This document shows, one piece after another, positions 610 to 29,766 of a DNA stretch of 39,498 bases. This DNA is from Catajapyx aquilonaris. Taxonomy: Eukaryota. Both the position numbers and the translations under genes were made by a program. Position 1 is the stretch's first letter. The number at the start of each line of letters is the position of its first letter. Under the pieces are notes generated by a model. The model was not told the origin of the DNA and did not search any database. It saw only the letters and a list, made by a program, of their open reading frames with translations. Where the stretch lies: the NCBI GenBank assembly GCA_000934665.2, contig JYFJ02003618.1, positions 1-39,498 on the forward strand, given 5' to 3'.

Positions 610-2500
610 ATGTTTGGTGTGCGTCTGCGTAAGATGGGCTTGAGTGGAGAGCAGTTTGAGAATGTGGCCTCCGTTATCCTGAGGGTGCCTGGACTCTTCA
701 TCTTCGACTACTGGTGGCAGTTTGACCTCCATCACTCCCTTCCAAAGAGTAGCGACTGGGCCGACATTGTTGGGGCAGCCCTCACCAATCTTGGTAATAA
801 TTAGTGTTGCTGTTATCAGATCAATTTGCTAATGTGTTTTCCATCCAGTTGTGCTCCAAGGATTGGTGCTTCTGCTGCTTCCGCTTGAGCAACTAGTGTC
901 GCTCTATATGCACTATATCAGCGCCGCCTTAGTTGCCTGGGCTGATTTATTCTCCCGTCAGTACGTGCTGGCTGAGCAGCGACTTGCGCAGGAGCAGACT
1001 TTAGCCCTGTCTACTGTCTCCCCGGCTATTCCGACTGAGGACACGCTCTTGGATTGGGATCACGAGTTTTTATTGAGACAAGTGTCAGCGGTGGTGTTAC
1101 ATGTTGTACTTGCATCTTCAACTGCATTTTTGCTGGATTTGGACTGTCCCATGAAACGTGCTTCACTTGCCGTATACTGTCTTCCAGTTGTTGCACGAAT
1201 GGCAAGCGTGCCAGTTACTCACTTGAACATTGTACATAACGCAAGCAGTGCGATTGCGATACTTGCATGCATATACTATGTCCTTAGTTTAATTCCTGGT
1301 GTTGTTTCATATGGGAGGCGTTGTTACCATGCAATTGCACAGCGTGTAAGTGAAGTTGGCATCGCACGAGTTGCCAGTGAAGTTGCTGTACGTGCATTGG
1401 TACCGACGTACTTTTTAGCCTTTTGGGGCGTACTCTTTGCAGCTCAGATGTATGACTACTGGTTTGTTGAGCGTGGGCGGGCTTTTCAAGTGTCAGACGA
1501 GTGGTACTTGGTGCTGCTGTACGCCGTGTCAGAAGTGTGCTGCACACCTTTAAGCCTTGCTAGCACATGCGTTGTCGTTTGTTATGCTTCTCGTGCAGCG
1601 TTACATCTAACACGGATGTACATATGTGCTGGTGGCGTCGCAATAGGTGCGCCAGTGCAAGACCAGCTAGTACACGCAGGCATTGGGGAAGGTTTTACAA
1701 TGGTGTTACTTGCAATCCAAACTGGGTTAATACAACTGCGTATGCCACATCGTATGGGAGCCATGTCAGTTGTTCTCTTTATTGTAGTTGGCTCGCTTGT
1801 ACAGAGCATGTACGATCTGACTGAACCAGCCCTCTTGACTCTCAGTGCGTCCCACTCCCGCTCTATTGCTCGTCACGCGCGATTGCTCTCTCTCTGCATC
1901 TTCCTTTTTGCATTCCCACTGTACATGATACACGTGCTGTACCACGTATTTGATCTAGACTTCTGGACACTTGTTGTAATATCAACGTGCGCTCTAACTT
2001 CGGTCCAAGTTGTGGGATTGCTCGTAGTGTACGGTCTGTTTGTGTACGACGCAACCCAAACCCGCGGTTGGGATTCTCTAGATGAGGTCGTGTACGCCTC
2101 ACGTGCCGTAACACGCGTCCTGGAATTCCTAGTCGCATTATTCGTGGTCGGAGCGGGTCTGCGTGAGAGCCTGGGTGAAGAATGGTCGTGGATGAACAGC
2201 CTCGTGTTAGCAGTCCACTGTTACTACAACGTCTGGCAGCGGCTCCAGGCCGGTTGGCGCTCATTCCTTCTAAGGCGTGAAGCAGCCCGTAAAATCCGCT
2301 CATTACCCAAAGCGAGTAAAGAGAGCCTGGCTTCCCACAACGACGTCTGTGCCATCTGCTACGCTGAGATGGACTCAGCCCGAGTCACACCCTGCAAGCA
2401 CTTCTTCCACGCCGGATGCCTCAGAAAATGGCTCTACATACAAGACAGATGTCCAATGTGCTCATCCAACATCACCATTGGTGACAACAGTGACACCTAA
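610..2500 (+). CDS. RNF145: RNF145/TRC8-family sterol-sensing multi-pass membrane RING-H2 E3 ubiquitin ligase, ~611 aa, 2 coding exons
   Basis: Exons 610-793 and 849-2500 are joined by a phase-1 GT..AG intron (794-848, 55 nt). An acceptor at 594 implies a 5'UTR intron. The N-terminus has the TRC8_N motif VILRVPGLFIFD, followed by many hydrophobic TM segments and a C-terminal RING-H2 (CAICY..PCKHFFHAGCLRKWLYIQDRCPMC). LAIQTGLI, DFW..IS, TSVQV, HCYYNVW and GWRSFLLRR resemble RNF145 more than RNF139 as I recall them. Confidence 0.88.
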
Positions 2501-2773: not shown

Positions 2774-2804
2774 TGCGCATGCGCATAGCAGATGACGCCA
2801 TTTT
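2774..2804 (+). promoter_or_regulatory. Proximal promoter motifs of the SMC1-like gene: NRF1/Erect-wing palindrome and YY1/Pho site
   Basis: Perfect TGCGCATGCGCA at 2774-2785 and CGCCATTTT at 2796-2804, 70-100 nt upstream of ATG 2872. Confidence 0.55.
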
Positions 2805-2871: not shown

Positions 2872-5800
2872 ATGGATGAGTCGGACGAACAGGCAGGAGG
2901 GGACACGTCCCAGCAGACCCTGTCCTCCTCACCGTCCACCGTAACCTCCATGTCCCATCTTCACATGGTCCAGATCCAGGACTTCAAGTGCTTCAGAGGG
3001 TCACACACATTTGGACCCTTCCCAAATTACGTTGGGGTCATAGGCTCCAATGGGTCAGGTACTACAAATAAGCCGGTTGAAAATATACTTAATTATATAA
3101 ATACTAATTGGGCTTATTTGCAGGAAAGTCGTCGTTTTTGGAAGCGATTAGTTTCGGATTGGGGATGGACATTTCGGAGCTGAGGGTCAAGAAAGCGGCT
3201 GACCTTTTGCATCAGGTTGATGGGACCGCACCGCAAAACTGGTAAAATGCAGCTGATTTTAATTAGCGTTTGCACACCTATTAATCGCGGTTAACCATTA
3301 CAGTTTGGCCGTCACGTTGACGTTCCTCAAGGACGACGGACAAGCGCTGCCGTTTTCCAGAGTTATTGACCGCAAGAGAGAGCGGTTCTTTGTTAACGAG
3401 CAAGTAAGGCTCGAAACGACTACAAATGATTGCGAATAATTTACCGTTTCGCATTTTACAGGTGGTCACCAAGGAGGTGTATCGGAAAAAACTGGCTGGT
3501 TTGGGGCATTATGCCAGCACCATCAACTTCACAAGGTTCCGAGAAGTCGTGGAAGACGACAACGGCATAAAAGGTGCGCTGGGATTAACGCAACTCCTGG
3601 AGAAAGTCAGCGGGTACGTAATGCAACATTGAAAGTATACGTTTATTACATTTTCCTTACATGCATACATGTGATGCCACAGATCCAGTTCTCTGAAGAA
3701 GGATCATATGGATTTGGAGCGGAAGCTGAAAGTTGCTGAGGCTAAATTTTCGGCCAGCAAAGAGGCCAATTTGAAAAACAGGCATAGAGTCTCTGAGCTG
3801 CGGAAAGATATCAGGAATGCTAACAATTACGGCAAGTGGAAAGAGAAACTTGTAAGGCCAATCCTTCTATAATTATTACTGCGGCTGCATTGAAGTGTTT
3901 TTAAAATTTGCAGGATGAGAAGACATTAACATTGGAAATGCTGAATTTGTTTAAAAACTCCGAGGATATCAAACAAGCAATGGAGAAGCGTAAGCCAGCA
4001 GATGGTAAGGAATTAGCGAAGAAGCTGGAGGATGCGCAGAAGAAAAAGACTAAAATTGCGGACAAAATTTCAAAAGTGTCCAAAGCGGCTGAGAAACGGA
4101 GAGCTGAAGCTTCTGACAAGGTAAAAAGGAATTTCGTAATGACAATTTTGCACTTATGTGAAAGTTGCGTGACACTTTGCCTTCTTCGATTAAGTTCAGG
4201 GACCTTGCAAAAGCTAATAAATCCCACGAGGCATCAAAGCAGGAGCTGCAAGAGGAGGAGCAAGTGTTACAGAGGCTGAAAAGGGAGCTTGCACATGCTG
4301 AAGCCGAGTCCACCGTTTGGAATAAGCAGCTTGAGGAATATAAGCAGGTCCATCAGCGCATAATGAAAAATTTGACGGAACATGAAGCCAAGCGCACGAA
4401 AAGTGGAACCTACAACATGTCGAAAGAAGAGGTTGGAATTTTACTGGAAAATTGCGCATTTGGATCCTCATTTTGTACTGTATGTCTTCATTACTTTTCA
4501 GATGTCTAAGTATTGTGAAGTGATGGAGAAAGTCAATCGAGACTGCCGTGAAGCTCTAACCAACAAGGCGAGGATTTCTCGTGAGCTTCTGTTTATTAAG
4601 CATAAGAGGGACAACATCTGGCGTGAAAAAGATGAAGTGAAGACAAAGGCGTCGAAAAAGACCGCTGTTCTTGATGGACTGAAAAAAGACCTGGAATTGC
4701 TGAAAGAGCGGATTGCGTGAGTTTCTGTTGTGCTCTGTGCTTTTCTTACATTCGATGTTGAAAATTGAGAACATTATATTTTTCCCCAGGTCCATGATTG
4801 AATCTCGGGGACTAAAACAGAAGGAACTGGATAATTATGAGCAGAACAAAGCCGGTACCGAAGCCCGGAAAAGAGAATTGGAAACTCACTACTGCGAAAT
4901 TCAAAACATGTTGCAGGAGCTTTCTCATGTCAAAGCAATGGACGACAATCGACAAAAAGCTGATCTTATTATGACTCAAAACGATGGTGTGGTAAGTGAA
5001 TTTTTTGTGCAGCTTTGCATTATTGAACATTATCATTATGTAGCATTTGTATTAAAATAGTACAAACATTATTAGCACTTTCAATTAATTTTACATATGT
5101 CTAATACAAGACTAGGGCCTTTCTATTCTTGTAATCGATTTAATACATCTCTTATTAGAGGGGACGCTTGAAGGACATATGTGAACCCATTGACAAGAAG
5201 TACGACAGAGCAATCACACTGATCTTGGGAAAGAAGATGGACACATTGATAGTGGATGACCTAGAGACGCTGAAGAGATGCGTGCATTTTGTGGTACAAA
5301 ATAAGGGTCGTACCGAAAGGTTTTTTCCTTTGCATCGATTGCGATCGATTGGTGAAAGGGATTGGAAGAAGAAATTCAGGTCAGTTTCCGCTTTTATTTG
5401 CTTAATTTAATCAGTTGTGACGCCATTTAATTTACGTCTTTGCAGATGTGATCGACCTGGTGTTCAGCCAATGGCTAACTTTATGAGGTATGATAACGCC
5501 AAAGCTAAAGGCATTGTTGCACTTCTAACGGACAAAGTTCTTCTTTGTGAGACTGTGGATGATGCCAAATGGGCTGCCTATGAACTGGAAGGAGGATTCA
5601 AGTATACAGTGAGTAAAACTGTGAAAAGATGTATTGATTTTCATGATGATGATCTGTAAATAATATTTTATATGTAACTTGTTAATTTATGGCTTCCAGG
5701 CCGTGTCTTTGGATGGGACGGCATTTTACAAGAACGGAAGGATATCCTGGTCCTCTGGCGGCTCATGGCGCAACAAATGTGGCAAATGGGATGCTGTTCG

Positions 5801-8800
5801 ATATCAGAAAATTCATGACAATAGGGTATGGGAATGAAATCTGACATTTTGGAAGGGTAAGTAAGACAAATCTTAATTTCAGAAAGCTGTCAGGGAGGAA
5901 TTAGAAAGGCTCTCCAAGCATCGATTTGAGGAATTTGACAAGGAAGGCATGAGTGTGGATATTGAATACTGTGGACAGCGGATCAAAGTATTGCAAGAAT
6001 CCAAAGAAGCAAAAGTAAGTGTTATTTTGAAAGATATGCATGGCTTTCAGCGCCTTGTTTTGGGCACATTTTATGTAATTATTTGCCAATGATATCAGTG
6101 ATAAATTACTTATTTTGTAAACTTTACAGGAACAACTAAAGGGAACCATCATGTCAGAACTTGATGAATTAGATGAAAAATTGCGAGCCATTTGTGTAAG
6201 TAAATAAGAAATTGATGTCTCTTGCATGTCATTGTTGTTAATCTTTCATGAAATGGTTACTATCAATGAAATGCTGCCATTAAGACATGTTGTGCATGCA
6301 ACAAGCACCCATGTGTCCAACCAAAGTTTGGGCCAGTTTTTCACTGGTGGTTAGAGTGACACTTTGAACCGTTCCAGGCTGAAGAAGAAGATTGTGAAAG
6401 AAAGCACAATGAACTGAGTCAGCAATCTGATGAGTTGACGACTATTGTTGAAGCTGTGAGAATTCAGGAGTTGCAAGAATTCTGTAACAGGGTTCGAGTG
6501 GCTAGCGTTAATGACCTGAATGTCATCAGAAGGTGAGGCCTACTCTGTGTTCGTTTCTGTTACATAAATTGAAAAGACACAATGCGATTAAGCGATTTCA
6601 TGGTGAAATTAGTCTAATTGTTGCTGAGACATCAAAATTATGTTTTTCTGCCATCTGATGTATTTTTAATTATTAATTTTCTAATCCGCTTGTTTGGCAT
6701 AGTGCTCAGTTGGAATGGGAGAGTGAGAAGGAGGAGTATCAACAGCAGATTAGCCGCATTAACACTGCTATAGATGACATGAAGCAAAGGCTTGCAAGGG
6801 GTGAGTTGATGTATATCGGGCTTGGAATGAAGTGTGAACAGCAGGCTGCATCTTTCAGCAATATAATAAGCTCTAGAAAAACCCTCGCTTCGCTCATATT
6901 TCTCTGCGGTGCAGGCCAGGCAAGCCACTCGCTTCGCTCGCTTTTTCTAGGCCTGCTGCCTGGGGTGGTGGAGGCCATATTGTTAATCCCTCAAGACTTA
7001 CAGCCAGAGATGTTGCCCACCCCCACCCCTATCCGTTCCTCCGTTTTAAGGTGAATCCACATATCCATGAACCATGATTCCATATTAGAAGCCGTTCAAA
7101 ATTAGACCACATCTGTGATGAAGAGAAACGCAGCATTTATTATGGTAGGCTGCATTTATCTCACAACCAAAGTAACTTTTCTTACCCTCCTAAATTGTGA
7201 AAATTTGTGGATTTTAAAATTCTGCTTGGCCTATAGTGTTGAGAAAACATCACCTCCGCTGCCAATTTTCACGTTAGCAGGGTGAAAATACAGCCAAAAG
7301 GCGATGTTCCGAAGCCACTTGCATCCGGTCGCGAGTCGCCGGCCAGCGCCAACGAGGGATAAATAGGGTACAGGCAGGCCGTAAAGGTCCGCTATATTTG
7401 ATGGTTTTGCCATGGCACTTCACGGCAAGAACACGCGCGAATTTGAATATTTTTGCCGCATGAGCTCCTTTAATGCACTTTTCTACGTATTAATTCCGTA
7501 AGTACGGCAAAGATATTCAAAAACAAAGGGTTACCAACACAGCAATGTTCCAAACAAAGGGTTGCCAACACCCAACAATGTTCCAAACAAAGGGTTCCCA
7601 AAACACAGCAACGTTCCAAACAAAGGGTTGCCAACACAATGTTCCAAACAAAGGGTTCCCAACACGCAGCAATGTTCCAAACAAAGGGTTGCCAACACAC
7701 AGCAATGTTCCAAACAAAGGGTTACCAATGCACAGCAATGTTCCAAACAAAGGGTTGCCAACACAGCAATGTTCCAAACAAATGGTTACCAACACTTTTT
7801 TTCACATGTGTGTGTATGATTAGCATTGGGCATGTTAATTGTGATTATCCAAATGCCTGATTAACGTGACCATTGACACTCTTAGTAATAGCAGTAAGTG
7901 CTAATTACTGTAATTCTCAGTAATATTAACGTACTATGGTAACATTCGAAAGGGCATACATTTCTACACCCGCGCGCATACTGTAGGCCTGCAACACTAA
8001 TTGTTTTAGATACTCAGTGACCGAATCGGGGGGACGCGTCGTGGATGGAACAGGGAAGGGTCGAGGTGACGGCAGAGACTGTTCATGTTGTTAACTCACT
8101 CATCGGAAGTCAGCTGATAGCTGAGGGGGTCTTTACTTCCCCCTTTGCGCATGCTCGGAACAGTGGCCAATTATAGAGGCGTCATGGTAACAATACCACG
8201 CAGTAACAATGGACGAGGGCCAGTAGGAAGCGTGCGGCAACAACAATAAGTGTCTGACCAATCACAATCAGAGGGCTTATACATAGTCTGCAAGCATTTT
8301 AATATTATAGATAGAAGGAAGATAGCAATATTAAACTAATTTAACGTGACAATAGTATGCTCATATATTTTTAAACTAATGCTAATGATAGCTTTTGTTT
8401 GAAGGTCGTTATGATGCCAAGCAAAAGGATGTTGAAGAGCAGGAGGCAAAAGCGAGGAGCATTCGAGAGAGCACAAATGTTACACAAGGGAATATTACGG
8501 CAGCAGAGTCTGACCTGAAGGCAGCAGAAGATCAGCGTCAAGCATACGCAAATGAACTTGGAGAATTGCAGAAGGAAAAACGGACGGTACAGTACATTTT
8601 CTTATGTGTGGTTTTTCTCATGGCTGCTCTGGGATGAACTGGAAAGTATTTCAGAGAGCAATGTTCATGTAAAGATTTAGATTTGTTACTCAAGTGTGAC
8701 TTTATTTTTTAAGACACATTTTATATTCCCCTTATAGGTGCTGGATAATATTCGGAAGTTGAAGGACCAGCGAAGTACGTTAGCTTCTGATGCAAGCCAG

Positions 8801-10824
8801 GTTGAGGAGGAATTGGATTCACTTCTGCATAAGCAGCACTTCCTGCTCCACAGTTGCTTGGTGAGTGATTCAAGTGCATTAGTGCAAGTTGGAGAAATAT
8901 TTAGGGAAGAACAATGAAGAGGTGTTACTCATATTGACTGTAACTGGAACACCACACCTAGATCGCTGGATTGTATGTGTAGAGGAATTTCAGGAAGGTA
9001 CTTTCTATGAGATTCTATTGAAATGTGCTTTCCAGGTAAGAAACATACGTATCCCCCTGCAAGCTGGACAACTTCAGGACCATGCGGAATTTCTAACCAC
9101 TCCTGAAGCGGAACTGTCGAATTATTCAAAGGAGGAATTGCGTGAAATGTTGGAGTAAGTTGTGGTTTTTTTTTTTAAATTCCCTGAGTAGAATTACATG
9201 TTGGTATTATTTAAATGTTTCCACTTGTCTTGGTAGAATGCCTGATTGTAATTTTCTTATTCTTCTTAGGGCCTTTTGTTGTTATCCATGGTAAATCCAC
9301 ACCAAATGCTTAATTATATCTGAATATGCAACTGTCCAATTAGGAATGAAGATGCTTTTTTTAATTATTTACCATGATCATAGCTAATTCAAATGACCTT
9401 TTGTCTTAATACTTCCCCGTTTCAGATCCGTTGGCATCGACTTCCAAAGTTTAAACCGAGATTTTCTGGAAGCTGTCAGGAATAATGAGTTTGAAAGACT
9501 TGAAGCTGAATTAATGACTGATCGTACGATACATCTGAGCCAGATGAAAAAGGAGTACACGGGTGAAAACGTATGTACTCTATTTATTTATTTGTATGGT
9601 AAATGTGTTGAATTCATCAGTGTGTCAGTGTCATGCACATTTATTCATGTTATTCTCTGACATGTATTATTATTTAAAAGTACTGTACACTTCAGCCAGT
9701 TGCAGGGCTTGCATCTCGTAAACTGTGCACGTCCCTTTGTGATTAATGGTTGGTAATTATACAAGTAAGACAAATGTGCTGTTATTAATGTTGCTATGAC
9801 TCGTTATGTAATTTGTTGTACCCGATGGTCATAAACGTATTAAACTTGGCATAATCAGACGTGCATTTGTCTTGTAACCACAGTCAAGGGCTAACCTGAT
9901 GAAGCAATTGGATGATGAATTGAGACTCCAAAACGAGCTGAAGGAGATCAGCAATGAAATGAAACACCTGCAGAAGCAAGTGAAGGAAATGGAGGTGTTG
10001 AGGAAGGACAAGTTCCTGGCCTGCTTCCAGGAGGTTGAAAGAAACCTGATGAAGTTCTACAAAGTTAGTAGCTTGATTAGGTGGACGCGAGAGCAGGTCA
10101 AATAGCCGTTCTTCTCAACATCCTCTCATTGCAGAAAGTGACGGACTGTGATACGGTGCAGGCTGTCCTGTCTGTGGACAAGGACAGTGCCACTCCATAC
10201 AATTGCCCTGTCACGTTCAATTGCGTTGTACCGGGGAAGAGATGGGTGCCTTTCGAATGTATGTCTGGCGGAGAGAAAACGCTGGCTTCCATGGCTCTTC
10301 TTCTTGCCATCAACGAGTAAGTGCAGGCTGTTTTGTAACTGTTATATCTCGTTGCTGTCAGTCGGTTGCATACTAATCTTGCGTTACCTTCCAGCTGGCA
10401 GTCCCCCAGTTTCTGTCTGATGGATGAAATCGATAGCGCTTTGGATGGGCACAACAAGCGTCATGCAGCTGCGGTCATCTCTTCGTTAGCAAATGCAGGG
10501 AAGCAGTTCTTTGTTGTGACTCACAAGAACTCTTTCCTGCTTCTTGCAGACTTGATGATTGGTTTCAGCGGCCATGTGAGTTGCTCTGTTCCTGTTTTCA
10601 GGCACATAACCTAGAACAGTACGTTGCACGCTGACTTCTCGTCTTGTCTGATCATTTTTTTACAATTGCAGAAGGACAGGGCCAAGAAGAAGCAGACGTC
10701 AACAAGGGCTTTTCACCTATCACTTAAGGGCTATGATCTGGGCGTGGTTGAGGAGGAGGTGGAAATGGACGAAGAGGCAGATGAGGAGCTGCCTATGGAC
10801 TTGTCTCCTCCCTCATTTGTCTAG
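2872..10824 (+). CDS. SMC1: Divergent structural maintenance of chromosomes protein 1-like (cohesin SMC1 paralog), ~1270 aa, 24 exons
   Basis: Phase-consistent GT-AG exons: 2872-3058, 3124-3241, 3304-3403, 3462-3613, 3683-3851, 3914-4120, 4195-4431, 4502-4716, 4790-4991, 5159-5379, 5446-5608, 5700-5825, 5883-6014, 6130-6195, 6378-6532, 6703-6800, 8405-8586, 8738-8860, 9036-9154, 9426-9570, 9884-10063, 10135-10316, 10395-10575, 10672-10824 (3813 nt, open frame). N-head FKCFRGSHTFGPF..GSNGSGKS..AISFGLG..LRVK; coiled coils; SMC1-type hinge GRLKDICEPIDKKYDRAITLILGKKMDTLIVD; C-head NCVVPGKRW..MSGGEKTLA..LMDEIDSALD. Exons 7 and 17 need AAG acceptors to keep frame. Confidence 0.88.
6865..8323 (-). 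mobile_element. Putative non-autonomous transposon (Helitron-like) inserted in SMC1-like intron 16
   Basis: Intron 16 is 1604 nt versus 57-313 nt for the others. The right end reads A|TCTTCCTTCTATCTATAATATTAAA on the minus strand (Helitron-like 5' TC). The left end has CTAG, an inverted pair CTAGAAAAA/TTTTTCTAG (6873-6881/6942-6950) and a duplicated CTCGCTTCGCTC. It contains an internal minisatellite and is flanked by direct AGCAATAT (6857-6864, 8324-8331). No transposase ORF. Confidence 0.45.
7513..7795. repeat. Minisatellite, ~9 units of 28-33 bp, consensus AATGTTCCAAACAAAGGGTT(G/A/C)CCAACACACAGC
   Basis: Head-to-tail tandem units are directly visible. They produce the repetitive ORFs seen in all six frames. 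Confidence 0.95.
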
Positions 10825-11806: not shown

Positions 11807-13147
11807 TCAGCTGTCTCCGCGTAAGGTGGCCAACAAGTCGCCAGATTCCTGCATCTCCTTGACGATGTCCAGTCCGCCAATCAGTTCTCCCTTGACGTAC
11901 ACTTGAGGGTAGGTGGGCCAACTGGAGAAAGTCTTCAGTCCCTGGCGGACCTCCTCGTCTTGTAGGATGTCAAACGTCTCAAACTCAACCCTGAATTTGC
12001 AAAAACCATTGTTTGTTAATTGAGCTACATGCGGCGTACATCGAATTGACCTTACTCTGCCCCTTTTAGTATGTCGATCAGCTGCCGGCTGAACCCGCAC
12101 CTGGGCGTCTCAGCATCCCCCTTCATGAAGACCATAATGTTATGCTTCCGGACCAACCCACCCAGCCTTTCTTCAAGTGGCTGCTTCTTCGGGAGCATCG
12201 CAGCCAGCTCCCCATTCTCCGACATCTCCCTCATTATATCCAGCCCGCCGATCAACTCTCCGTTGATGTACAGCTGCGGGTACGTCGGCCAGTTAGAAAA
12301 TTCCTTCAGACCTTGCCGGACCTCATCGCTGCTCAGTATGTCAAACGTGCTGTAGCGGGCCTTGTAGTCGTTCAGGATAGCCACTGACTGCTTGCTAAAA
12401 CCTGATGAAGTGGAGAACAATTAGACGGGTAACAATGCGAAATGAAAGCGATCTTACCGCATCGAGGTTCCTGCGGGTTTCCCTTCATGAACAGCATGAC
12501 GGGAGCTGCGTTAATCAGCTTCTTCAGTCGGTCGTTGATATCCTCTTCTTTCCCCTTCAGCGTCCCCTCCGCATTGTTGCTCCCTTCCTGAGCAGCCTGC
12601 CTGACCTTCTTGGTCAGCTCCGGAGCCCTTGCGCCGTCCACACGTCCCACAGCCTTCCCTCCCCGAAAGAGGATGACCGTCGGAACCGAAGTGACCCCAT
12701 GGGCCAACGAGGCTTCCGGAACCGACTCAGCCTGCAGAAGGAAGAACCGAACAGCGGACAGGTCTGCAGACGACGCCAGTTCCCGCATGCACGAGGTCAC
12801 CGTCGTGCATTGCGCTGCCCATTCCGCACAAAAGTGAACCACGGACAGATCAGCAGACCTGGAAAGTAATTAAGTCACATACCCGATAATTGCATTATTT
12901 ACCGCCATGTACTATACATTTAAAAAAATATATCAATGGAAAGTTCTGGATGCAAAAAAAAAAGTGAGTTCATTGCACTTGATCAAACATTGGTTGTGTA
13001 CAATCGGGACGAATCATACACCCAGCTGATAAATGAGTGTTGGCCAATTTGTTGTACATTAATAATACGCAATTATTTCAATTATTTAATTGCTTACTTG
13101 ACAATTTTTTCCAGCTCAGATGAACTCTGCACGTTCGAGAGCGCCAT
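11807..13147 (-). CDS. GLRX3: Glutaredoxin-3 (PICOT/TXNL2), ~326 aa, Trx-like domain plus two monothiol CGFS Grx domains
   Basis: Minus-strand exons 13147-13098, 12858-12458, 12401-12056, 11990-11807 (981 nt, GT-AG, phases consistent). Motifs: [84 protein letters not shown]. Confidence 0.95.
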
Positions 13148-16333: not shown

Positions 16334-16359
16334 CCCCCCCCCCCCNCCCCCCCCCCCCC
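16334..16359. repeat. Poly-C homopolymer (26 nt, containing one N)
   Basis: Directly visible. The ambiguous base at 16346 indicates local assembly or read uncertainty. Confidence 0.9.
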
Positions 16360-16729
16360 ATCTGCAGTAGAAAAAATAAGTATGGTCAATATAATGGCAG
16401 TTTGGGTACCTCAACCAGCAGATTTATAAAATATAAAAAAAAACTCGCGACTCACAACACCGTCCTTTTACCTCCAGTAATGGTCAGGGGCTGGACCTTT
16501 TCACTTGACATAACAGCTATAAAGTTGTCCCTTCGGGCATTTCAAAGTGGCCAGAAAAACCGTTAGGTCAGCTTCCAAGGCCGACAAGGTCCACTAAAAA
16601 AGCCGCTCTCTGAAAGAAGAAAAAAGAGAGGAAATTCCTTTATAGATGCACCCCTCCAGGTATTCGCTGCATTCACCCAAAAATTCCAGCCTCTCTTTGT
16701 TGAATCTCCCGCAGATTTAATATCCAACA

Positions 16730-19700
16730 ATGTCGTCGTCTTCACCGACGAAACGGAAGAAGGAAGGGTCGTACTCTGAGGTACCTCAAAATGGAGACAT
16801 GGTCCTGGGGGATCCCGCGGAAGAGACTGGAGCCGTGTGTCTGAAGCCCAAGATGAGCCTGATGAACGGAGTGACGGTGATTGTCGGAAGCATCATCGGA
16901 TCGGGAATCTTCGTGTCACCAACCGGTGTCCTTCTGGGGACAGGTTCGGTCAACATGTCCCTAGTGGTGTGGACAGTGTCCGGCCTGTTCTCCATGGTCG
17001 GCGCCTATTGCTACGCCGAGCTGGGCTGCATGATCACCAAAACTGGAGCGGACTACGCTTACATCATGGAGACATTCGGACCTTTCATGGCATTCATCAG
17101 GCTATGGATCGAGTGCATGATCGTTCGACCGTGTTCTCAAGCCATCGTAGCACTCACATTCAGCATCTACATACTCAAGCCCTTCTTCCCGACATGTATG
17201 CCTCCGGACGAGTCTGTGCGTTTGCTTGCGGCCGTCTGCATTTGTAAGTTGCTATCGTTGGACGTTAACAATGTCCATTCTGAACTTTACACACACGAGA
17301 TGCAGATAACAAAAAATGTTATTAACCACCCCCGTCTGGATGAGTAATAAATTATCGCGTCTCTAAGCCACAAATGAGTTCGTCTGCGAGCAAAATATTA
17401 TTCCAAAGAGAAGACCTCTCATTCTTGATTAGAACACATTACGCGGTGGCCCAGGCAATAGGTCAAGCGATGTCGATCAATCACCCGGAGTATGACGTGT
17501 ACTTCACTAAGCCGTTTAGGCTGCTATATTTGCACAGGCAGTTTTTCCAGTGCCGCACATAAAACAGCAGCTTCCTTTATTGCAGTCAAAGTGGCCAAAT
17601 TTTGCGATCACGCCTACAGGGTGCCGGTTGGGGAGAAAAAAAGCGCAATCTGCAAATGTGACATTTCGCCAGCACACTAGAAACAATTAGGCAGGAAGGT
17701 GTCTATTAAAGCCAGTGAGCAGAGGATGGGGGGGAGAATCTCCATTGCACTTTTAATAGAATGGATTCAGAGTCTGCTGGGAAGTCCCAAAACGACTCCT
17801 GCGAAATATTATACCACAGGTATACCACTGGATGTAGGACAGGTTCTAAAAAGAGAACTGGATGAACAAAAGGGCTGCTTTGTTGGATCTCTAAAAGCAG
17901 CTGCGAGCTTTACAATTTTTGTCGACTGTAATTTGAATCCCGGACTCGGAGGGTGCTGAGGGGGAATGGAACTACTAGGGGACAAAAATTCCTGAGCATA
18001 ATTGTTCATTTTTTTTTGTCAGGAGCAATAGTTAGAAACAATTAAGCAGATGATCAGCGACTGTGCGTGACAAAAGTAGTACCAGATTATATCAATTCGT
18101 GACCGTCAAAACTACTGGATAATATCTCAGAAGTTTCTAAGAGTATATTTTGGGAGCAGTGGAAATTTAATTTGAAATCCTGTAATCGCATCTGGAGTGT
18201 GCAATTGTGTTCCTAATCACTATTTTTTTCTTGGCTTTACACCATCTTCGTTGATCTTTGGAACGATCCTCTTTTTTTTTCTTCTAGACCTTTGATCGAA
18301 ACCTGTCGTAAAGTTTACTTTTCGGTTTCCTATTTCTGCTTGGAGCGTACTTCTCACGGTCAGAGCCTGGAGTGCAAACTCGTGTACCATCAGTCTACAC
18401 ACACACACTCACACTTGACGTCCGAAGTTGATCGTTGAGCTTGCAAAACCTCAGATTCGCGGGCGAAATTGGACACTATAATAAGTCAATGGCCTATACC
18501 GACAATCTGGAAATATCGGTTCGAAGTCCACTCTACACATAAATGAACATAAAAAGGGAATTGTTTACGTCGCTGTTTAGCGTCAGAGGCAAAGTTCAAT
18601 CTTTCTGAATGAGAGCAGTATGAAAATAGGCTACTATAATTATTATCTCCGGATTTTTCTAGCTATATTTGGAAAATTAACTTACACTTTTTTTTGTATC
18701 CTGAGTCTGACGACATGCTTAGCGAGATTGCATGACCGTATAGTATAATACGCTGAGGTCAATGGCACATACCGTGTGTGAGCTGAGGTTTGATTTACAG
18801 CACGTGTTCGATGGCGGCCTCTGTCCTTGATAGATCGGCGAGGATTGGCATAATTCAGCAATAACTCAATGCCGGTTATAGAGAGGCTTTGTCACCGAAC
18901 AAAAATTTGCGAACATTTTCACGTTGTCAGGATCCGGTGACCTGTCCTGGCGTTCAGTAAATGAAATTCCGAACTGGGGGACAAACACATGTGTGTTGCT
19001 CAGAGGTCAGAGCCGAAAAGAGGTTTTTTGGCGAATAGACCTCAGCTTATATAGCCCAGTTTTTGCAAGGTTGCCTCCATATGCATGGTTGCCATATGTT
19101 CCCTACAAATTGGTGGGAACAATGACCGAAGGGCATGCCAATGTTAAATATTTAAAAAAACAGTGTTACCGCAGGAATTAGTGAAATTCCGGACATGAAA
19201 AATTGAAATTTGCGATTTTCCAAAGAATCGGCAGAAAACCTGGAACGTATGCTATAGTAAAATCTATAGGAAAATCTAATAAAACCAGTCGAAGTCTGGG
19301 AGAAGTGCAGAAAAATAAAATACATAAGAAAACCTCAGAAGTCCCTGGAGAATCCACGGAAAACCACAGAAATCCAGACAACTCAGGAAGTCCAGAAAAA
19401 TAATCTGGAGATTACAAAGATAATGTGCACACATCATTTGAAATTACGTCTACAATATCAGTGTAGACGTCATCAGGAGTTTGCAGATTTTTTTTCTCGT
19501 CCCGTATTCTTATACCACCTGTGGCTTTTATCTGCAGAAAGGTGATGCAACTATTCGCGAATGTGGCGTGTTCCCTCGTCAACAAAGGAGATGGGATGCG
19601 CATATACACATATACAAGTATATATAACTTACCTGACCCCAGACCTGCAATTTAATCCACGCTGCATCAAGCAGGGTTGAAAACCTGTTTATCCCCGATC

Positions 19701-28700: not shown

Positions 28701-29766
28701 TCCCTCTTGATAAATACATTATTGTATGACAAGTATATTGCCCTGAGATATCTGGACAATGCACCACAACCATTGTAGAGCAATGAGGAATGCATTATGA
28801 ACACATAACTCTTTTGACAGCATGACTGCACATCTCACGAAGGGAATTTGTAGGACACTGTATTACCAAAATGGATTGTTATGGCCCGTGAATACACAAA
28901 AGGATCACTAATTACTGGCGCTAGGTCAAACTTGGCCCACACAGGATGCACTAAAAGTATTGTAATCTTCAGCTAATGTTTTACAGCCTCTTTTTACATA
29001 AAGTCGGGTTTTATTGTAAAAGGATATTTCATACTACAGTATAAAGTTGTTACACATCCTTGGGTATGCCATATCAAACAGATGCATTGTGTGCAGCTCC
29101 AGTTAGCATAATATTTAAACGTCTAACATGTATGCAATTTTTCATTTCAGGCGCTCCTCTCCTTGCTTTATTTATGTTCTTCGGATATTTTTGCGTTAAT
29201 CAACTACGTAGGATTTGCCACATGGGTAAGTCCTGCACTCTGGTTTGGGATGAGAGCAAATCACTTTGAACTGATGTATACTCTTGAAATATTCCAGCTG
29301 AGTATCGGCCTGGCTGTCCTGTGCCTACCATGGTTGAGATGGAAGCGACCCGAACTTCCCAGGCCAATCCGAGTCAACCTGTTCTTCCCAATCATCTACA
29401 TCATTGCCACCATCTTCATAACCGTTGTGCCAATGATGGCCAGTCCTGTAGAGACAGGTATCGGAACACTCATCATTCTCAGCGGAGTTCCAGTCTACCT
29501 TGTGTTCATCTCCTGGAAGAACAAGCCCCGAGTTGTGAGGCAAATTACAGGTATGTTTCATCAGGTGGAATCACCTGGATACAGTAATTATTCCAGGCTT
29601 GTTAAGTGTACGGGTATAACAGTGCCAATAACTTTTTTCTCCCTGAAACGCAGCGAGAGTGACAAAGGAACTTCAAAAAGTGTTGCTTGTGGTTGCTCCT
29701 GAGTCTATGGCAAGGAGGGAAGTGTCAGGATCAGCATCGACGCAACCTTTAACCGCTCAGAAATGA
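16730..29766 (+). CDS. SLC7A8: L-type (large neutral) amino acid transporter light chain, SLC7 LAT1/LAT2-like; isoform A with last exon 10a, ~514 aa
   Basis: Exons 16730-17243 (acceptor at 16714, so an upstream non-coding exon exists), 20906-21031, 24205-24298, 25526-25570, 25840-25963, 27015-27118, 27530-27626, 29151-29225, 29298-29550, 29654-29766. Motifs: [10 protein letters not shown] (TM1), CYAELG, KPFFPTC (heavy-chain disulfide Cys), [15 protein letters not shown] (TM6), KNLPRAI, SSRLFYAGA. The symbol is family-level only (likely co-ortholog of SLC7A5/SLC7A8, Drosophila CG1607-like). Confidence 0.92.

Follow-up and report, generated by a model that had tools for sequence, protein, structure and literature searches.

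The stretch of DNA analysed here, a 39,498-nt window from Catajapyx aquilonaris (contig JYFJ02003618.1), carries on its forward strand an intact SMC1-type gene, which was spliced and translated from the window as 24 exons spanning 2872..10824. The coding sequence of 3813 nt runs from an ATG at 2872 to a stop codon at 10822-10824 and encodes 1270 residues. All 23 introns have GT...AG borders and the splice phases are all compatible; 22 of the introns measure 57-313 bp and one, intron 16, measures 1604 bp. The spliced frame contains no in-frame stop, compared with 68 and 105 in the other two frames. An earlier, sequence-only reading of the same DNA had described a complete 24-exon frame of about 1270 residues, and the rebuilt model, with its 23 GT-AG introns and zero stops, agrees with it. 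The divergent motifs quoted in that reading, FKCFRG, GSNGSGKSSFLEA, MSGGE and FCLMDEIDSALD, are all found in the translated protein, and the canonical counterparts, FKSYKG (or similar), GPNGSGKSN, LSGGE and FFVLDEIDAALD, are seen in the SMC1 rows of gar, mussel, wasp and brittle star. At the N-terminus, Met27 (window position 2950) stands exactly opposite Met1 of canonical SMC1 in the alignment and is preceded by a putative extension of 26 residues of Ser/acidic character. The upstream ATG at 2872 (gcgaaaATGg) has a better start context than the one at 2950 (acctccATGt). The extension described earlier therefore exists as sequence, with Met27 as the canonical Met1, but a translated extension is only putative. 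Further features go beyond the earlier description, namely the replacement of the Q-loop glutamine by arginine, an H-loop histidine and a 30-residue acidic C-terminal tail.

All 24 exons lie on the forward strand and together encode a protein in which the SMC motifs follow one another in order in the alignment: N-terminal head, coiled coil, hinge, coiled coil and C-terminal head. Exon 1 (2872..3058) was assigned by translation and alignment to the N-terminal extension, the start of the N-terminal head and the first part of the Walker A motif; in the alignment this motif, GSNGSGKSS (3043-3134), is split by intron 1 and its remainder is found in exon 2 (3124..3241; Pfam SMC_N, 1.3e-4) together with the arginine finger LRVK (3180-3191). 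Exon 3 (3304..3403) translates as N-terminal head, and exon 4 (3462..3613) holds, by alignment, the Q-loop region NFTRFREVVE (3525-3554) with Arg162 at 3540-3542. Translation places the N-terminal coiled-coil arm from exon 5 (3683..3851) through exon 6 (3914..4120), exon 7 (4195..4431) and exon 8 (4502..4716) to its end in exon 9 (4790..4991); the donor of exon 7, GTTGGA, reads as weak and has no other in-frame option. The first half of the hinge is encoded by exon 10 (5159..5379), the second part by exon 11 (5446..5608; Pfam SMC_hinge, 0.0027, and alignment), and its end by exon 12 (5700..5825), whose translation and alignment give VSLDGT...ISWSSGGS with a three-residue insertion before the GG. 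Exons 13 (5883..6014), 14 (6130..6195), 15 (6378..6532), 16 (6703..6800, followed by the only long intron), 17 (8405..8586), 18 (8738..8860), 19 (9036..9154) and 20 (9426..9570) all translate as C-terminal arm, which ends in exon 21 (9884..10063), where the C-terminal head starts. Exon 22 (10135..10316) continues this head and holds, by alignment, the animal-type stretch NCVVPGKRW and the signature MSGGEK (10261-10278). In exon 23 (10395..10575) the Walker B motif and D-loop SFCLMDEIDSALD (10408-10446) are followed by FVVTHKN (10510-10530), in which the histidine occupies the H-loop position of ATP-binding cassette (ABC) proteins. Exon 24 (10672..10824) was read by translation and alignment as the last head strands, the acidic tail (10732-10821) and the stop. 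Intron 16 contains a minisatellite (7521-7795) with a 33-bp unit in 8.6 copies at 85% matches, and an open reading frame spanning it has no Pfam match.

The gene product is an SMC protein of the eukaryotic SMC1-6 type and belongs to the SMC1 (cohesin) class. Four exons (4, 10, 22 and 23) were each searched against the PDB. Hinge exon 10 matched human SMC1A with an expectation value (E) of 1.1e-13, the best non-SMC1 chain being SMC4 at 3.9e-4, and exon 22 matched SMC1A at 2.3e-9 and SMC4 at 6.5e-5. In Pfam, the best matches of the exons were SMC_hinge at 1e-10 (exon 10) and SMC_N at 3.8e-10 (exon 23); five of seven exon pieces matched at E<=0.01 and two of the seven met the curated cutoff. The identification as SMC1 from head and hinge sequence, already made in the sequence-only reading, is thus upheld, both by exons 10 and 22, which match SMC1A best, and by a tree that places the gene among SMC1s, with SMC4 as the only non-SMC1 class included. 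A search of 1.84 billion cluster representatives with the 73-residue hinge exon gave 399 matches at E<=1e-3 and one at E<=1e-10. None of the representatives exceeded 45% identity to it, and the human SMC1A hinge reaches about the same level (~45%) as the best of them, implying that neither the product of this gene nor a close ortholog is in that library. A word-indexed search for longer proteins with exon 22 returned 15 candidates, none of which scored. Among 216 pattern matches to the hinge exon, tblastn confirmed one metagenome locus (L001), which was rejected as a chance match because it lies on a contig of 63% GC with bacterial-looking long open reading frames, in a frame without other similarity.

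The divergence of the protein was measured in an L-INS-i alignment of the model with 41 SMC1s, comprising 15 canonical animal sequences, five fish SMC1B, the sequence named Intoshia and 20 unnamed full-length representatives (P0074, P0098 and P0150, from the 25 full-length representatives, were omitted). The identity of the model to any of the 41 is at most 25.1%, with a median of 21.6%, and lies between 19% and 25% for canonical animal SMC1. The 15 canonical animal sequences are 53-94% identical to one another (median 63%; 53-66% between phyla); identity to gar SMC1A is 50-56% for SMC1B and 32-37% for fungal-type rows. With gar or mussel the model shares 35-36% identity in heads and hinge and 15-21% in the arms, compared with 71-83% and 51-56%, respectively, for the same regions between mussel and gar. 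The model keeps 150 (40%) of the 376 columns that are invariant in the 15 canonical animals, whereas SMC1B keeps 278-302 (74-80%), Intoshia 254 and nine further rows 207-245. The extreme divergence of this SMC1, previously noted from motifs, is well borne out by these numbers, and by this sequence comparison the gene is far more divergent than SMC1B. The columns conserved at the >=95% level in all other rows are better preserved: the model keeps 57 of 84 (~68%), compared with an overall identity of ~22%. In seven leave-one-out controls for such columns, 74/88 to 83/85 were kept, with Intoshia at 83/85.

Such divergence, together with the loss of the catalytic Q-loop glutamine and with an exon 4 that is unrecognisable on its own (no SMC in the PDB at E<=1), could be taken as a sign that the gene is a non-functional or silent duplicate, whether under relaxed constraint, silenced not long ago or never transcribed, the gene model being an artefact of prediction. 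We regard this as quite unlikely. Pseudogene hallmarks (stops, frameshifts, broken splice sites, intron loss) were sought in the gene and none were found; that 24 exons with 3.8 kb of coding sequence are free of such lesions suggests that any neutral phase could only have been very short. GC content at third codon positions is 0.527, near the 0.503 of the neighbouring TRC8-like open reading frame and unlike the intron GC of 0.382. The N-terminal arm, hinge and C-terminal arm measure 344, 156 and 396 residues, compared with 355-356, ~152 and 399-412 (~405) in animal SMC1, so that both arms are about ten residues shorter, and their lengths have changed together. Both arms have preserved the heptad-type, 3.5-residue hydrophobic periodicity (z 4.5 and 4.4 against 300 shuffles) and contain one and two prolines, respectively. 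The alignment shows that Walker A (GSNGSGKS), arginine finger R83, SGGEK, Walker B D1170-E1171 and the D-loop have been preserved, along with the animal-type C-terminal head stretch NCVxPGKR. The extreme overall change with retention of the core, the matched arm lengths and the absence of any disabling mutation point to continued purifying selection on the fold, and the earlier suggestion that the open frame is still under selection draws support from the kept catalytic motifs, the matched arm lengths and the coiled-coil periodicity.

The ATP site appears to have been rebuilt in two loops. The Q-loop reads NFLVFQG.VE in every other row shown and NFTRFREVVE in the model, with the substitutions Q162R and G163E between the conserved flanking anchors N157, F161, V165 and E166; the glutamine column is conserved at the >=95% level across the other 41 rows. 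The set of ATPase motifs is therefore incomplete, five of six being present (Walker A, arginine finger, signature, Walker B and D-loop) and the Q-loop glutamine being replaced. In the C-terminal head, the near-invariant I-S-L-K has become V-T-H-K (S1202T and L1203H, within 10510-10530), and HMMER aligned His1203 with the H-loop histidine of ABCB transporters. In SMC heads, the Q-loop glutamine contacts Mg2+ and the γ-phosphate and drives lobe flexion. Condensin mutants with a Q-loop Gln-to-Leu change have lower nucleotide affinity because they fail to coordinate Mg2+, and their ATP-driven conformational switch is abolished (PMC6591010). Because the glutamine is lost, an H-loop histidine is gained and such condensin mutants are impaired, an altered ATPase cycle would be expected at a site built on the divergent head. 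No described SMC1 paralog without the Q-loop glutamine was found in the literature searched, a search that was not exhaustive.

Phylogenetic analysis shows that the gene is an animal SMC1 derivative. In an LG+G4 tree of 44 rows and 1231 columns, the model is placed within the clade of animal SMC1s (Shimodaira-Hasegawa-like approximate likelihood ratio test, 99) as sister to all other animals, with an end branch of 2.37 compared with a median of 0.53. An LG+C20 tree with posterior mean site frequencies (PMSF) was built from 24 rows and 564 head and hinge columns, with 23 of the 41 comparators (nine canonical animals, two SMC1B and seven unnamed representatives, 18 rows in all, were dropped). 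In this tree the model has an end branch of 3.71 and attaches between 12 animal rows and 11 outside rows (split 100/97), among which fungal-type P0077 is the only named one; its split from the 12 animal rows is supported at 72/69 only. P0150 is an SMC4 (490 bits, compared with 188-205 for SMC1). When it was added as an outgroup under LG+C20 PMSF (25 rows), the model and the 12 animal SMC1s formed a clade at 100/98, and the two long branches (model 3.46, P0150 3.36) did not join. The animal rows of the tree panel are bilaterian SMC1s, with no cnidarian or sponge row. The phylogeny proposed in the sequence-only reading thus puts the gene within the animal SMC1s at 100/98 on a long end branch, which under LG+C20 amounts to 3.5-3.7 substitutions per site compared with ~0.1 for canonical animal SMC1, about 30 times longer. 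Forcing the model into a clade with wasp SMC1 and two unnamed long rows costs 5.3 log-likelihood units, a less favoured placement that the approximately unbiased (AU) test does not reject (p 0.076). Two unnamed full-length SMC1s, P0076 and P0085, group with wasp SMC1 (99-100) on long branches of ~1.2-1.3, and P0076 scores 597 bits with human SMC1A; both are candidates for additional arthropod SMC1 copies that evolve fast.

The same trees bear on the proposal that the gene is an ortholog of SMC1B, the meiotic form of vertebrates, or belongs to an SMC1B-like paralog line older than vertebrates, which we consider highly improbable. A fish SMC1B (P0086) is the top phmmer match of the model among the 25 full-length library representatives, and a forced clade of the model with three fish SMC1B rows, at a log-likelihood difference of 5.6, is not formally rejected (AU p 0.054). 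However, when named panels of 119 rows each were added, the spliced model scored higher with canonical SMC1/SMC1A from molluscs, annelids, nemerteans, an echinoderm, wasps and vertebrates (P0270-P0388; median 316.8 bits, range 289.9-337.6) than with fish SMC1B (P0151-P0269; median 247.2 bits, range 142.7-298.0); for scale, fungal-type SMC1 P0077 scores 612 bits with human SMC1A. Each of the three trees joins SMC1B to vertebrate SMC1A (support 97-100) and leaves the model out of this group. The CpG observed/expected ratio of the window, 0.78 at a GC content of 41%, and the 57-313 bp of most introns are also unlike the values of vertebrate genomes.

Three other recognisable genes are found in the window, and all are ordinarily conserved. 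Upstream of the SMC1-type gene, a TRC8/RNF139-like E3 ligase gene (833-2500, forward strand) consists of one 555-codon exon with a TRC8_N domain (2.8e-102, 343.6 bits) and a RING-H2 domain; its reading frame is open at the 5' end, and a short first exon probably lies further upstream. The likely poly(A) signal of this gene, AATAAA at 2729, is only ~140 bp before the SMC1 ATG, so that the SMC1 promoter would have to be very compact. A perfect GCGCATGCGC palindrome (2775..2784, no strand assigned), 88 bp upstream of the SMC1 ATG, is a possible promoter element; in a motif count the window has one exact site, and two sites with at most one mismatch compared with 0.59 expected. We take the palindrome, putatively, to resemble an NRF1/EWG-type site. 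Downstream, and convergent with the SMC1-type gene, is a GLRX3/PICOT-like gene (12052-12869, reverse strand) with thioredoxin and monothiol glutaredoxin domains, the glutaredoxin domain being identical to human GLRX3 at 41 of 63 positions (~65%, manual count); it has unusually large exons and a very short intron near 12372-12420. The third gene encodes an SLC7 amino-acid transporter of the LAT / y+LAT type (16721-17347 and 29127-29702, forward strand), whose first large exon is identical to human y+LAT2 at about 87 of 152 positions (~57%, manual count). Its next recognisable long open reading frame lies ~12 kb further on, which indicates that introns in this genome range from <60 bp to many kb. 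The window yielded no Rfam or tRNA match, and 11 other long open reading frames in it have none in Pfam; the assembly has a single N at 16346. In a protein atlas, the clusters closest to the TRC8-like and GLRX3-like reading frames are most frequent in Arthropoda, which is a weak pointer to arthropods.

The TRC8, GLRX3 and SLC7 genes are, in ordinary animals, no better conserved than SMC1. Since all three neighbours are ordinarily conserved here, the acceleration is, by this comparison, specific to the SMC1-type gene. The same observation argues against a generally long-branched proteome, the circumstance that the sequence-only reading had set against its own proposal. It also bears on the possibility that the divergent gene is the only SMC1 of the genome, an essential cohesin subunit in runaway divergence. 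A tblastn search of the window revealed no second SMC1 within its 39.5 kb, the gene has retained every domain and the majority of the catalytic motifs, and there are precedents for a sole SMC1 on a long branch, such as the row named Intoshia linei SMC1. Yet this Intoshia sequence, compared with the model, has retained far more of both the near-universal columns (83/85, compared with 57/84) and the animal-invariant columns (254/376, compared with 150/376), and an essential SMC1 without the Q-loop glutamine would be unprecedented in the panel. With the neighbours conserved as they are, a sole SMC1 seems unlikely.

Comparison with known systems shows how far the gene fits a familiar pattern. It shares with canonical animal SMC1A the five-part architecture, the motif order, the C-terminal head stretch, the arm and hinge lengths (344/156/396 compared with ~355/152/405 residues) and a common clade at 100/98; it differs in being only 19-25% identical, in the replaced Q-loop Gln/Gly, in the change of ISLK to VTHK, in the three-residue hinge insertion before GG and in its 26-residue N-terminal and 30-residue acidic C-terminal extensions. 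The vertebrate meiotic SMC1B is the obvious functional analogy, being likewise a faster-evolving SMC1 copy with intact architecture, but it is 50-56% identical to SMC1A, keeps 74-80% of the animal-invariant columns and has kept the Q-loop. Precedents for SMC paralogs with new tasks are the nematode DPY-27 and SMCL-1 of condensin. Both have their origin in SMC4-type subunits of condensin; the ATPase of SMCL-1 is altered, and this protein is without hinge and coils. The gene described here is SMC1-derived and keeps the hinge and all the coils. Also comparable are the lineage-specific extra SMC1s of invertebrates, which are likened to it here by their published description: Daphnia pulex has two SMC1 genes from a duplication independent of the vertebrate event (PMC2680839), and several sawflies have SMC1 duplicates that tend to have long branches (PMC13239252). 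In the parts of these sources consulted (PMC2680839, PMC13239252), no Q-loop loss is reported for the Daphnia and sawfly duplicates. The comparison suggests that the gene fits a known kind, that of independent SMC1 duplicates, but with two active-site loops changed and with a divergence beyond that of SMC1B.

The explanation that we favour, at somewhat better than even confidence, is that the gene is a lineage-specific SMC1 paralog, maintained by selection, whose product forms a variant cohesin. The locus encodes a full-length SMC1-type ABC ATPase consisting of an N-terminal head, a coil of ~340 residues, a hinge, a coil of ~400 residues and a C-terminal head. It descends from the animal cohesin SMC1 and has evolved many times faster, apparently still under structural selection. 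Most probably it would be an additional copy confined to its lineage, and the genome would encode a canonical SMC1 at another locus; the main argument for such redundancy, an indirect one, is that the acceleration is confined to the SMC1-type gene. The hinge would dimerise with SMC3, and a kleisin on the C-terminal head would close the ring to give the variant cohesin. With the rebuilt ATP site, in which the Q-loop has an arginine and the H-loop an ABC-type histidine, the variant complex would be expected to differ in how it binds or hydrolyses ATP, and a cohesin that is slow and stays stably closed is one plausible outcome. As to where it would act, a germline or meiotic role is our leading guess, by analogy with vertebrate SMC1B and with the duplicated SMC1 of Daphnia and sawflies. 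Paralogy, partners, altered ATPase and tissue are thus the parts of this scheme that we infer.

Several observations weigh against such a variant cohesin. In the PDB search, exon 23 found ABCB4/ABCB1 at the top, although with a whole-sequence E of 2.8e-6 that is summed over two weak stretches; yeast Smc1 followed at 3.3e-4 and human SMC1A was not within 0.01, and exon 4 with the Q-loop found no SMC at E<=1. In the SMC4-rooted tree the 12 bilaterian SMC1s form a group without the model (84/84), to which the model is sister; this basal position within animals may reflect a long-branch artefact or an old paralog. Paralogy is argued from the contrast with the three neighbouring genes, and the binding of SMC3 and a kleisin is assumed from family membership. 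The missing Q-loop glutamine could just as well be a sign that function has been lost.

The product might also no longer act in cohesin, having been recruited elsewhere, for example to act as a regulator by titrating SMC3 or kleisin, or to form the core of a new SMC complex. The rebuilt ATP site, the head and hinge that are only 35-36% identical to canonical SMC1 and the new acidic N- and C-terminal tails would all be compatible with this, but nothing positive speaks in its favour, and the full SMC1 architecture with the animal-type NCVxPGKR is retained, so we hold it to be very doubtful. A bolder form of the proposal, which we put forward tentatively and with a minority of our confidence, is that of a cohesin-derived SMC1 with a re-engineered ATP site (the Q-loop glutamine lost and an ABC/prokaryotic-type H-loop histidine regained) and with rod and hinge under selection. 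Its ATPase cycle would differ, and it would form either a cohesin that is by nature asymmetric or slow, or a new SMC complex; long-lived cohesion in the germline is a possible task for it.

The value of the gene lies in the constraint from which it appears to have departed. SMC1 is among the most constrained of animal proteins, and the ratio of nonsynonymous to synonymous substitution rates in mammals is 0.003 for SMC1A and 0.215 for SMC1B, meiotic cohesin genes being fast-evolving (PMC11431564). If the variant cohesin proposed here is real, the gene would be a natural experiment showing what the cohesin ATPase cycle can do without when serving some chromosomal task, and it would add another independent specialisation of a cohesin subunit outside vertebrates. 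If it were instead the sole SMC1 of the Catajapyx aquilonaris genome, the finding would be more surprising still.

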